From: Candidatus Latescibacterota bacterium
GTDB lineage: Bacteria; Latescibacterota; UBA2968; GCA-2709665
NCBI GenBank assembly: GCA_965237675.1
Contig: OZ250150.1
Location: 4,576,001-4,640,000, forward strand
Length of the DNA stretch: 64,000 nt
Direction of reading: 5' to 3'
The translations under genes and the position numbers were made by a program. Within the stretch, counting starts at the first letter, position 1, and each line of letters opens with the position of its first letter. The notes beneath the pieces were generated by a model that was not told where the DNA came from, made no database searches, and saw only the letters and a program-made list of their open reading frames with translations. Of this stretch, positions 18,370 to 40,241 are shown in pieces.

Positions 18370-18550
18370 CCTGCGCCCTGAGCCTGTCGAAGGGTCGGCG
18401 CAGGGTAGCGAAGCGCGGGCATTTCGACAAGCTTGCTTCGACAAGCGCGTTTCGACAGGCTCAACGCAAGCAGCACAGGCAATGACCACGCTTCGGTACG
18501 CGATCTTCCCTCCCCTCCCCCTGCCGGGGAGGGTTCGCCATCCCCTGTGC
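18370..18550. repeat. Nested TGAGCYTGTCGAA hairpins plus a G/C-tract hairpin
   Basis: Homologous to the reverse complement of ~4810-4895; CTCCCC..GGGGAG block shared with 60024-60075. Confidence 0.8.
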
Positions 18551-20977: not shown

Positions 20978-21307
20978 CTACAGGACAAGCGAATCGTAAT
21001 TTGCTCTGAGCCATGTGGTTTCTTCCGAGAGTTGCGCGAGGTCTCCCCGTTCGTAGCAGATGGACCACGGGTGGAGGCCGTTCTTTCCCAGCGTTTCTAT
21101 CCTGTGGTACTCCTCCAACTGGAGGTCGATCAGGGCGTTCAGGATTGCTCTGGTTGTCGTACCATAGGCGCCAGAAACGACGTTCAGTCTGGCCCTGAGA
21201 TCCGGCCTGGCGGAAAATCCGGCTTCTTTCCAGTGGTCTTTACCTCGCAAGGGCACCGCATACCAGGCAAATTGACCGACATCCCGGAGAGGATCACCCG
21301 CCTGCAT
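20978..21307 (-). pseudogene. C-terminal fragment of a phosphotransferase-like protein
   Basis: GDPLRDVGQFAWYAVPL resembles the segment after the APH DWD motif; no N-terminal part. Confidence 0.45.
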
Positions 21308-21438
21308 TTCATTCTGGTCCTAAAAAAGCCGGCCTTACCACATGCCAGCCACCTCAGTGCCCGGGTTCGGCACGACGCTGCACGAGCATTTCGTCAACGC
21401 GATCGATGAATCGACGTCAGCCACGGGGAACGCCTCGA

Positions 21439-21744
21439 CTATCCCCCACCGAGGTGCGGCCGCACTTCCCGGTTCAGACGGTCTGCCAGTTCGTCCTCCG
21501 CCACATCCAGCTCATAGTCCGCCTGAATGTCCATCCAGAATCGGGGCGACATATAGAAGTAACGGGCGAGTCTCAGCGCCGTCTCCGCGGTGATGCCGCG
21601 TTTACCCAGCACAATCTCGTTGATTCGTCGTGGCGGCACCCCGATGGAAAGCGCGAGTTGGTTCTGGCTGAGATTCATCGGCTTGAGAAACCGTTCCAAC
21701 AACACCTTCCCGGGATGAATAGGCGCCAATTCCCGAGCGCACAT
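21439..21744 (-). CDS. higA: HigA family antitoxin
   Basis: PIHPG.VL.E.FLKP, RINEIVLGKRGITAETALRLARYF and FWMDIQADYEL. Confidence 0.93.
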   Translation of the reverse strand: MCARELAPIHPGKVLLERFLKPMNLSQNQLALSIGVPPRRINEIVLGKRGITAETALRLARYFYMSPRFWMDIQADYELDVAEDELADRLNREVRPHLGGG

Positions 21745-21756
21745 CAATCTGACTCC

Positions 21757-22030
21757 ATGGTGATCGTCTGCGATCTAAACGACGCGGGCGCCGCCGGTTC
21801 GACAGGTGAAACCAATACGCCATTGGTCGCTGACGGTCATACCGTACCGGCTCGCACGGTGTCGCCTCGAGGCCGCATTGCGATAGGCTGGCGGAATTCG
21901 AAGCTCGACGCGCGTCGTCGTCGACTATCGATTTGGCGTGCGAAGCCTGCGAACCCCGGCCTGGCCACTCCCGTGTTCGGGTGCGTTGGAAGTTCCGTGG
22001 GTTCGCTCGATCTCCGAAAGATCGCGCCAT
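21757..22030 (-). pseudogene. higB: Degenerate HigB toxin
   Basis: MARSFGD start; after a frameshift ELRIPPAYR...VSDQWRIGF...VV*IADDH matches the HigB pattern DLRxPPGNRL...INDQWRICF...VEIVDYH; TAG at 21775. Confidence 0.75.
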
Positions 22031-22043
22031 ACGAATAGTATAT

Positions 22044-22155
22044 AACGTTTTCCGTTAAATGGAAAGTGTTAAATGAAAACCGTTACATATTAAGCGTTAA
22101 ATGATAACCATTTAATGGAAACCGTTAAACGATAGATGTTAAACGACAAGCGTTA
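22044..22155. promoter_or_regulatory. Tandem array of eight 14-bp palindromic units AAYG-N5-CGTTA (putative HigA operators)
   Basis: Exact 14-bp period; units start at 22044, 22058, 22072, 22086, 22100, 22114, 22128 and 22142; begins 14 bp upstream of the higB start. Confidence 0.75.
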
Positions 22156-22294
22156 TGCCGTACGCAGACGCCATTCTTGACGTACCCTGTCCGCTGGCGA
22201 CGTACACGGTTGCCAACTGAGGAGCGGTTATCAGACGTCCGCACACGCCAGCGACGCCGGGCCAATCATCCCGCCGGAGGTCATGGCGTAAGTC

Positions 22295-22984
22295 TCAGCT
22301 TTGCGTCAGACGAAGCATGTTCGAATCGCCGAGCCGAAACTCGAAAGGCACGGACACGAGTTCGACGTCTACCCACCTCTGCACGGTCTGTATAGTACAG
22401 TCCAGATGCCTCGATGGTTCACCAGCCATGTCGAACAATGGAAATACTCGAACCTCTCGCCCGACCCGAAGCAGTTCACGGAGGAAGGAGAGGTGCGTTT
22501 CCAGGTCGAATTTCTCGGAGTACAGAAACAGCAGATGCGAGCCGAGGACAAGATCGAAGGACTTCGATCGGAAGGGTAACTCGGGCAGGCTCCCCGAAAC
22601 GTAACGACCTCTCCGAGTTACTGATTGAAAATCGCAAAGAAAGGTGTTCAGGATGTCCCGGCGCAGCCGGAGGACCTGTTCGGGGCTTCCATAGTGGTCC
22701 CACAGGAACCGTTCGCGTGCCTTTCGCATTCCCGCGAGCATCCGCCCGGCTGTGGTTTCGAAACTGGCCTTCAGATCCCGGCCGGAAAACCTGTAAATGG
22801 GATCGACGGCGACAACGAATCGCCCCGTTTGGCCCCATTCGGCGGCGAACGAAGACGGTCCGCTGCCACAGTCCAGTACGCGTGCGGACGGCGAGACGTC
22901 GGACAGCGCGAAGAACGCCTCGTATTCGGCCGCGCCTCGGCCCCACGCGGGAACGGTTCCCCCAAAATCGAATTCGCTTGACAT
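22295..22984 (-). CDS. SAM-dependent methyltransferase
   Basis: VLDCGSGPSSF, LPELPF..FDLVLGSHLLFLY and EVRVFPL. Confidence 0.88.
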   Translation of the reverse strand: MSSEFDFGGTVPAWGRGAAEYEAFFALSDVSPSARVLDCGSGPSSFAAEWGQTGRFVVAVDPIYRFSGRDLKASFETTAGRMLAGMRKARERFLWDHYGSPEQVLRLRRDILNTFLCDFQSVTRRGRYVSGSLPELPFRSKSFDLVLGSHLLFLYSEKFDLETHLSFLRELLRVGREVRVFPLFDMAGEPSRHLDCTIQTVQRWVDVELVSVPFEFRLGDSNMLRLTQS

Positions 22985-39319: not shown

Positions 39320-40123
39320 CTATTTGTCAATGACTGCTTTCCAAAGCAGGCGACGCTGCCGAATATCAAGCTTTCCATGTTTTCCGTGGCGGAAGAAAAT
39401 GGCCTTCAGAGCTTCTTCCACTTCGGAATAGGACGGTGTATCAGCTGGGGGCCGTCCGAAAGCAAGCGCCTTGTATAACCGTCCGGGGCCGTCCAGCAGG
39501 GCAGGCACGTCGAAAGTCCAACAACTGTGCAGTTCAATCCCTGCCTCCGCCAGGGCCCCCTTAACCGTATCCAGCATCACGTCCGGAAGGTGGTGGTTTT
39601 CACGATCGAAGGGTTCCGGCAGCTCAACATTCCATTCGGGAACGGGTAGTCGACCCGACATGCACAACTGAATAAGAATGCCTCCGCTTCTTACAACCCG
39701 TTCCGCGTCAGCGATCCAGTGTACAGGCCCCCGCCGAGAGATGATCAAGTCAAGAGACTCGTCCCCGACCGGTATTCTCACCCTCCCCTGATTTGCCTTC
39801 GCGCTTGAATCGTGTACGAGGAACGTGACATTTTCCAGCCCGACGGCCCGGGCATTCTCCCGCGCAAGTTCGATAAATGAGGGAACCGGATCGTACCCCA
39901 GAAAGCTTCGACAGAGCGGGGCGAGCCGAAGTGCGTCTTCACCATGTCCGCAGCCCACGTCCATCACGTCCTTGTCAGGGCGCAGATGCGCCTTCACAAA
40001 ATCCAGGTAGAAGACTTCCCCACCGCATGCTCCAACCTCCACGTCTTGTGATGTGGAAGGATAGCCCTGCTGAGATCTCGCGAGTCTCTTGTACCACTCT
40101 ACGCTGTGCGGACGCGGACCCAT
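39320..40123 (-). CDS. Class I SAM-dependent methyltransferase
   Basis: VMDVGCGHG and LDLIISRRGP. Confidence 0.88.
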   Translation of the reverse strand: MGPRPHSVEWYKRLARSQQGYPSTSQDVEVGACGGEVFYLDFVKAHLRPDKDVMDVGCGHGEDALRLAPLCRSFLGYDPVPSFIELARENARAVGLENVTFLVHDSSAKANQGRVRIPVGDESLDLIISRRGPVHWIADAERVVRSGGILIQLCMSGRLPVPEWNVELPEPFDRENHHLPDVMLDTVKGALAEAGIELHSCWTFDVPALLDGPGRLYKALAFGRPPADTPSYSEVEEALKAIFFRHGKHGKLDIRQRRLLWKAVIDK

Positions 40124-40140
40124 TGGCAATATCTCTTAAA

Positions 40141-40241
40141 CGAGAACAAGAGGTTTGACATCGCTTGTTACGGGCGCTGTCGCAGGCTCACATGTGCGGC
40201 CGTTTGGTCATCCTGGCAGGCAACAACGTCAGGCGTTAGAC
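40141..40241 (-). other. attC-like site
   Basis: Minus strand GTCTAAC-GCC-TGAC ... GTCA-AACCTCTT-GTTCTCG immediately before a gene start. Confidence 0.5.

Follow-up and report, generated by a model that had tools for sequence, protein, structure and literature searches.

Eight tandem HigA-type operator units upstream of a decayed higB and an intact higA in a Latescibacterota genome

At positions 22044-22155, eight abutting 14-bp inverted-repeat units (8 x 14 bp, in exact register) lie at the promoter of a toxin-antitoxin locus whose toxin gene, higB, is broken and whose antitoxin gene, higA, is intact. Positions are those of the window, by which we mean the whole stretch of 64,000 bp of Latescibacterota DNA that was analysed. 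The array descends from the two-unit operator that is canonical for promoters of this family. We regard it as probable that the array is an amplified HigA-family autoregulatory operator, which a domesticated HigA would load cooperatively to repress itself more tightly. To take the parts of this reading separately, comparison of the sequences makes it very likely that an amplified HigA operator has been kept by selection, and by analogy with related repressors we suggest tentatively that its effect is tighter cooperative repression.

One or two palindromes mediate the autorepression of type II antitoxins, and many genomes contain orphan antitoxins. To our knowledge, the fate of an antitoxin and its operator after loss of the toxin has been little documented. 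The single lineage described below gives a consistent outcome, in which higB decays in three ways, the toxin-holding face of the antitoxin changes, the DNA-reading head stays fixed and the operator grows from two units to eight or ten, which have been retained. It thereby offers a concrete case of antitoxin domestication, and its natural series of 2, 8 and 10 units is one in which the scaling of HigA-type cooperative DNA binding with site number could be followed.

The original prediction, made from the letters of the window, had placed eight 14-mers in register at this site, and they were found there letter for letter. Its description of a palindromic array also stands, with the strand corrected: the genes of the locus lie on the minus strand, on which the unit reads TAACG-N5-CGTT. 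TRF called the array at periods of 14 and 28, with scores of 72 and 90, the top of the 28 rows returned for the 64-kb window, and the array region has a G+C content of 36-37%, versus 57% for the window. The pattern AAYG-N5-CGTT was found 12 times in the window (6 of these within the array) versus 5.15 expected, a count reached in 1 of 100 shuffles. The junction motif CGTTAAAYG, with one mismatch allowed, showed no enrichment in the window (24 found versus 21.45 expected). When scored with a weight matrix for which 48 other loci supplied the proximal operator units, each of the eight units fell in the top 0.03% of the 127,146 background 14-mers of the window. No second array of operator units was found within the 64-kb window; a different 14-bp tandem repeat at 18423-18462 (2.9 copies, TRF score 52) is unrelated to the operator unit in sequence.

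Table 1. Features of the higBA locus and its operator array in the window.
Feature	Position	Strand	Basis
Class-I methyltransferase gene, reading towards the array	22295..22984	-	Pfam Methyltransf_11
Whole array, TAACG-N5-CGTT units	22044..22155	-	sequence, TRF, weight matrix
Six extra units, u1-u6, not present in canonical loci, on the upstream side of the core promoter	22072..22155	-	operator comparison
u1 (distal unit)	22142-22155	-	window sequence
Core two-unit operator, u7 + u8	22044..22071	-	match to last two L009/L007 units
-35-like hexamer TTTCCA, inside u7	22060..22065	-	promoter scan
u8 (proximal unit)	22044-22057	-	window sequence
-10-like hexamer TATACT, directly past u8	22037..22042	-	promoter scan
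higB pseudogene, start ATG at 22030 kept	21748..22030	-	three-frame translation, DNA alignment
higA, intact, 101 aa, HTH_3 domain	21439..21744	-	TIGR02607, PF01381

Read along the minus strand, the methyltransferase gene is followed by a spacer of 139 bp, the array, 13 nt, the ATG of the broken higB and then higA (Table 1). A promoter-like site, TTTCCA-17-TATACT, matches 9 of 12 positions in the promoter scan, and its TATACT stands 6 nt before the old higB start codon, a layout of the leaderless type. These elements are best understood by comparison with relatives of the locus. A scan of a genome collection with the HigA protein provided 79 loci, from the best 80 of at least 540 relatives, and the closest among the loci listed come from Latescibacterota MAGs, at 80-85% identity to the window HigA. 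Canonical loci with an intact HigB have two abutting units, with the -35 (TTGACG or TTGTCG) within the distal unit and the -10 (ATAnnnT) straight after the proximal unit and overlapping its end. In 36 of 56 canonical loci the start codon follows the proximal unit after 13 nt, as it does in the window. Across 48 loci, both arms have a high information content and the proximal centre a low one, while the -35 falls in the distal centre. The survey defines in this way a conserved promoter-operator layout for a HigA clade that spans many phyla. As a side observation, the higB start in those 36 of 56 loci comes only about 6 nt after the -10; higBA mRNAs in many phyla would therefore be leaderless or nearly leaderless.

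The window shares with canonical loci such as L001, L003 and L013 the unit itself, the placement of -35 and -10 and the 13-nt distance to the start, and it differs from canonical loci in having eight units rather than two, a pseudogene in place of an intact 93-aa HigB, and an antitoxin that has lost E14 and E19, both of which the canonical loci keep. In L001, L003 and L005 the distal unit has the same sequence as u1 of the window. Canonical loci also occur on the Synechocystis plasmid pSYSM and on Picosynechococcus plasmids. A tblastn search of plasmid and phage collections returned 538 and 89 records, respectively, with relatives (best identity 69%), and the two plasmid loci examined, from cultured cyanobacteria, have an intact toxin gene and no array, with the proximal unit and the adjoining arm present.

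For the survey, units were counted as 14-mers with at least 6 of 9 arm matches, chained in a 14-bp register within the 900 bp upstream of higA. Among 57 loci of the 79-locus survey with an intact HigB, none exceeded two strict units (42 had two and 15 had one), and seven reached three when one weak unit was tolerated. Such arrays are thus not routine upstream of an intact higBA; had they been, the original prediction would by its own account have been refuted. The 22 loci without an intact HigB include two long arrays, at loci L009 and L007, each of ten units in register: six, one weak and three units in L009, and eight, one weak and one in L007. These are the only long arrays beyond the window among the best 79 of at least 540 relatives, and neither locus has a working higB, so that eight to ten units are found in the survey only where higB has been lost. 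TRF did not call the L007 array and called the L009 array only in part, and these two arrays therefore rest on the chains of arm scores and on the printed sequence. Toxin loss alone does not bring expansion, because three other loci with internal higB deletions (L014, L041 and L059) have kept two units only.

All three long arrays have a promoter-like site at the proximal end, with the extra units upstream of that core. In L009 the site is TTGTCA-17-TATAAT (11 of 12 matches in the promoter scan) and in L007 it is TTGTCA-17-TAAAAT (10 of 12), so the window -35, TTTCCA, is weaker than the TTGTCA at the equivalent position of the other two. The last two units of the three arrays correspond, the penultimate bearing the -35 and the last being identical or one base different: u8 is identical to the last L007 unit and one base off the last L009 unit, and u7 is similar to the -35-bearing unit of the L009 and L007 arrays. 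We also observed a second, weaker promoter-like match in each array (TTAACG, 16-17 nt, and TATCAT or TATATT; 9 of 12), at 22101-22128 in the window, 2348-2376 in L009 and 2341-2369 in L007, which in the latter two lies at an equal offset from the main promoter.

The three long arrays have one origin. The window, L007 and L009 group together with a support of 100/98 in a maximum-likelihood tree built from 77 HigA proteins; their clade is nested in the Latescibacterota group, with L007 and L009 as sisters. A methyltransferase gene upstream and a kinase-like gene downstream are common to the three, at 74-77% protein identity, and the methyltransferase orthologues upstream of the L009 and L007 arrays are 75-77% identical. 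The clade and the common flanking genes together indicate one orthologous chromosomal locus, despite the label Gemmatimonadota that L007 carries. There are also differences in the surroundings. In L007 a G-rich element of about 120 bp occurs twice between the methyltransferase gene and the array, about 240-480 bp upstream of higA; the element is absent from the window and L009. A gene of the endonuclease/exonuclease/phosphatase (EEP) family follows higA on the same strand in L009 (2881-3741) and L007 (2869-3729), and its position in the window is taken by an unrelated 381-aa protein with no family match.

The claim of a dead higB beside an intact higA was borne out. The higB remnant keeps its start codon. 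Its frame is shifted by a 14-bp deletion, 6 bp have been inserted, TAG occurs twice in frame, and the normal stop is lost. The remnant aligns over its full length to six intact higB genes of relatives (93 aa) at 64-66% nucleotide identity, compared with about 80% for higA against the same relatives. Pfam and NCBIfam gave no match to the remnant even at E up to 10 or 1, with queries that either carried X at the TAG codons or followed the frame from the ATG; its homology to higB therefore rests on the DNA alignment. The higB of L009 and that of L007 have shrunk to about 75 nt, with different end points, so that higB is found in three different states of decay across the three loci.

HigA itself scores 99.9 bits against TIGR02607 (cut-off 47.7) and 40.3 bits against PF01381 (cut-off 23). 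The place directly upstream, where the family has a working HigB, is occupied by the pseudogene. Within the clade, higA has a dN/dS of 0.15-0.25 at a synonymous divergence of 0.41-0.84, which indicates purifying selection, two to three times more relaxed than for canonical Latescibacterota pairs (0.03-0.08). The earlier observation that the array and higA persist despite decay of the toxin thus extends to all three loci.

The pattern of change in the protein suggests what has been preserved. Residues 37-64, from the recognition helix onwards, are invariant in nine proteins of the Latescibacterota group, and none of the eight positions that distinguish the clade from six canonical relatives (6, 14, 19, 65, 69, 73, 76 and 100) falls in the HTH. 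For the related antitoxin GraA of P. putida, the structural report describes hydrogen bonds to the toxin GraT through R7, E13, E18, D64, T66 and N72, and an acidic face opposite the DNA-binding face (structure 6FIX; PMC6393540). By alignment these residues correspond to window positions 8, 14, 19, 65, 67 and 73, of which four are clade-specific positions (P = 2.6e-4), the residues that correspond to E13, E18, D64 and N72 having changed throughout the clade. The residues of the hydrophobic pocket are retained. The signature of the clade, which is neither E14 nor E19 together with Y65, was found in 6 of the best 120 protein clusters, and of the 119 clusters readable at position 19, 113 have E there, the six exceptions being the signature clusters. 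The clade HigA thus has a changed toxin-holding face and an unchanged DNA-reading head. Because the head is kept and the toxin-holding residues are lost, HigA would no longer be mainly an antitoxin, and these replacements suggest that it is now a stand-alone DNA-binding regulator. We also considered whether the changed face had become more basic; this was rejected, the net charge of the six clade clusters (-2 to +1) lying within the range of the other 114 (-5 to +4).

Among solved structures, the window protein is nearest to Coxiella VapI, P. aeruginosa HigA and P. putida GraA (E 3e-20 to 5e-15), and the operator of the last supports the assignment of the unit. The original prediction had given TAACG-N5-CGTTA as the GraA operator, and this is literally right: Table 1 of PMC6393540 includes TAACG-AATAA-CGTTA. 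In that source the operator is viewed as a central TAACGTTA palindrome with two distal half-sites, on which two dimers bind with strong cooperativity on opposite faces about 7 bp apart; one dimer on its own fails to bind an isolated complete site. The separation of the HTH motifs in the GraA dimer (33.8 A) would fit half-site centres 11 bp apart, as in TAAC-N7-GTTA. The 14-bp unit accordingly matches both a stretch within the GraA operator and the units in the two-unit operator of the relatives, as expected of a site for one HigA-family dimer. The units at the promoter-like site are thus candidate operators for HigA autorepression.

The resemblance extends to the HTH fold (E = 5e-15 between GraA and the window protein) and to an inverted repeat TAACG-N5-CGTT(A) at a TA promoter, which is found in the window; it does not extend to the size of the operator or the state of the toxin. 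According to PMC6393540, GraA has one operator of 33 bp for two dimers and a working toxin that acts as de-repressor, whereas the window has eight tandem units at a 14-bp spacing and a dead toxin gene. P. aeruginosa HigA (6JPI, 6LB3; E = 2e-18 to the window protein; PMC6987408) needs a full 28-bp operator and two cooperative dimers, leaves truncated operators unbound, has its toxin present and also controls other promoters, namely mvfR and pel; in operator organization and toxin state it thus differs from the window, with its eight units and dead toxin. In place of one operator of about 28-33 bp for two dimers, the window has 112 bp and eight units, and L007 and L009 have ten.

Antitoxins kept without a working toxin and presumed to be DNA-binding regulators have been described before, for the inactive TA pair MtvT/MtvA (PMC11826091) and in surveys of orphan antitoxins (PMC7192599, PMC10790755). 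The accessible parts of these sources mention no amplification of the operator of the kind seen in the window, and a search of the open-access literature in PubMed Central and bioRxiv found no report of an amplified antitoxin operator. As far as these sources go, orphan antitoxins and inactive pairs as regulators are already known, and the amplified operator is what is new here.

How the arrays arose and why they have lasted are separate questions, and the former has a simple answer. The higBA promoter of this family carries two abutting 14-bp inverted-repeat units, each of the type that one HigA/GraA dimer reads, and in the toxin-less lineage six to eight units have been added upstream, most likely by unit duplication, with retention of register. 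On a neutral reading, nothing further happened. The promoter would have been unconstrained after the death of the toxin, slippage would have expanded the repeats, and the arrays would now be functionless and decaying. Direct repeats are prone to slippage, TRF called a 28-bp period, and many of the arm changes are CG to TG or CA. Several of the extra units have weak arms (1.5-8 bits versus a canonical median of 16.4), and these may be unoccupied by HigA. The original prediction had argued for selection over recent slippage from conserved arms and variable centres, and for the window alone this argument is insufficient: in an exact test over all 2002 choices of 9 of 14 positions, 114 of 2002 partitions were as extreme, a marginal result. 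In addition, centre positions 7-8 are conserved in the window, and such likeness of centres within one array (TT in the window), greater than that to units of the other arrays, suggests lineage-specific duplication.

The argument gains strength once the other two arrays are added. Partitions as extreme were 2 of 2002 within L009, 17 of 2002 within L007 and 1-2 of 2002 between arrays, so that arm conservation with variable centres holds for both of these arrays and between arrays. The extra units have an arm identity per position of 0.71-0.76 and a centre identity close to random (0.34-0.52 among units of one array, 0.25-0.38 across arrays), and conservation correlated with canonical information content, the Spearman rho ranging from 0.46 for the window (p 0.096) to 0.84. 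Scored with the matrix of canonical proximal units, each of the 28 units in the three arrays exceeds the 99.7th percentile of the window background (P <=0.0028). The synonymous divergence given above implies that neutral DNA has changed much within the clade, and over this divergence eight to ten units have persisted at three orthologous loci. Their register is unbroken over 112, 140 and 140 bp, whereas higB has acquired indels in the window and has lost large parts in L007 and L009, and the other toxin-less loci have no expansion. We read these comparisons as a sign that the arms are under constraint, and consider a purely neutral origin and persistence of the arrays unlikely. No offset stood out in a unit-by-unit comparison of the arrays beyond the last two units; some turnover of units has therefore occurred, and turnover or gene conversion could contribute to the similarity of the arms.

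If the arms are maintained, the simplest function is the ancestral one. HigA dimers would load side by side, one per 14 bp and each turned by about 120 degrees, so that as many as eight dimers would cover the DNA between the -10 and a point about 110 bp upstream and stabilise one another. The outcome would be a steep, cooperative self-repression of a HigA kept as a stand-alone DNA-binding factor. We infer the occupancy of the extra units and the tighter repression from the units and the related systems; because GraA dimers sit about 7 bp apart on opposite faces, cooperativity along a 14-bp tandem array is an extrapolation. Alternatively, the extra sites could serve as a reservoir that holds a pool of HigA, buffering the free protein or raising the amount needed for shut-off, as one of the options in the original prediction had it. 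The units do look like HigA sites, and HigA bound to the extra ones, upstream of the -35, would not necessarily obstruct polymerase; with six to eight sites in a chromosome, however, the pool would be small, and sites that abut in a single register point to cooperation more than to independent decoys, so we think this improbable. Less probable still is a role as roadblock or insulator, in which a HigA-coated array would halt read-through from the methyltransferase gene on the same strand. That gene faces the array in all three genomes, and no terminator-like site was found between the two in the window or in L009, the sole terminator-like match in L007 sitting within the array; yet the terminator scan was a simple consensus scan, and in L007 some 500 bp of other sequence separate the array from the methyltransferase gene.

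ParR/parC, TubR/tubC and omega heptads are systems in which abutting, in-register short repeats are coated cooperatively by small dimeric proteins. The window array resembles these centromere-like arrays, and iteron arrays, in its abutting short repeats in one register, and sites for some other element, such as a plasmid-type centromere, an iteron origin, a REP-like element or a structured RNA, might therefore be imagined. Unlike the centromere-like arrays, however, the window array has no partition NTPase or plasmid context, is associated with a homologue of an XRE-type HTH antitoxin and overlaps its own promoter. The unit is the family's own operator and is situated exactly at the higBA promoter, in a conserved chromosomal context. 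Neither partition NTPase nor replication initiator genes were found among the neighbours (methyltransferase, DUF4037, kinase-like and NUDIX, with the EEP-family gene in L007 and L009), and the window has no other array. Rfam gave no match in 21300-22500 at E up to 1, and folding of the RNA of the array strand was not significant (z = -1.74; 12 of 200 shuffles equally stable). We therefore consider this class of explanation very improbable.

A bolder possibility, and in our view a doubtful one, is that the toxin-less HigA has become an architectural protein, which would form a continuous helical nucleoprotein filament on the array of 8-10 sites, with three dimers per four turns of DNA, and act as a chromosomal device. 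An implication of such a filament is that the array could serve, beyond autorepression, as an all-or-none switch or as an insulator between the methyltransferase and the downstream genes. It would also represent a route from toxin-antitoxin modules to new chromatin-like elements.

A regulon had been proposed as something to look for. The operator matrix found a single isolated site with perfect arms in the 64-kb window; about 0.4 such sites are expected by chance, and there is therefore no evidence for a regulon within these 64 kb. The site itself, at 40225-40238 on the minus strand, is one base off the canonical -35-bearing distal unit and has no abutting second unit, with a methyltransferase ORF (39320..40129) about 96 bp downstream; given the chance expectation, the site may mean nothing.

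Finally, we note several observations on the decay of higB. Internal higB deletions are recurrent: in the three loci already mentioned (L014, L041 and L059) and also in L045, L064 and L076, what survives is higA, the two-unit operator and a short 3' piece of higB, and toxin loss in the HigA family seems to be frequent. A different fate of the same higBA module is seen when L006 is compared with L001, both from Latescibacterota, in which flanking proteins are up to 99.6% identical; L006 is without the operator, higB and the first codons of higA, and a TonB-dependent receptor gene runs into its higA remnant. In the window, the frameshift in higB opens a frame of 142 aa from the old ATG (21602-22030, minus strand) that extends about 145 nt into higA in another frame, and ribosomes may read through the higA start in this way if the promoter is active.
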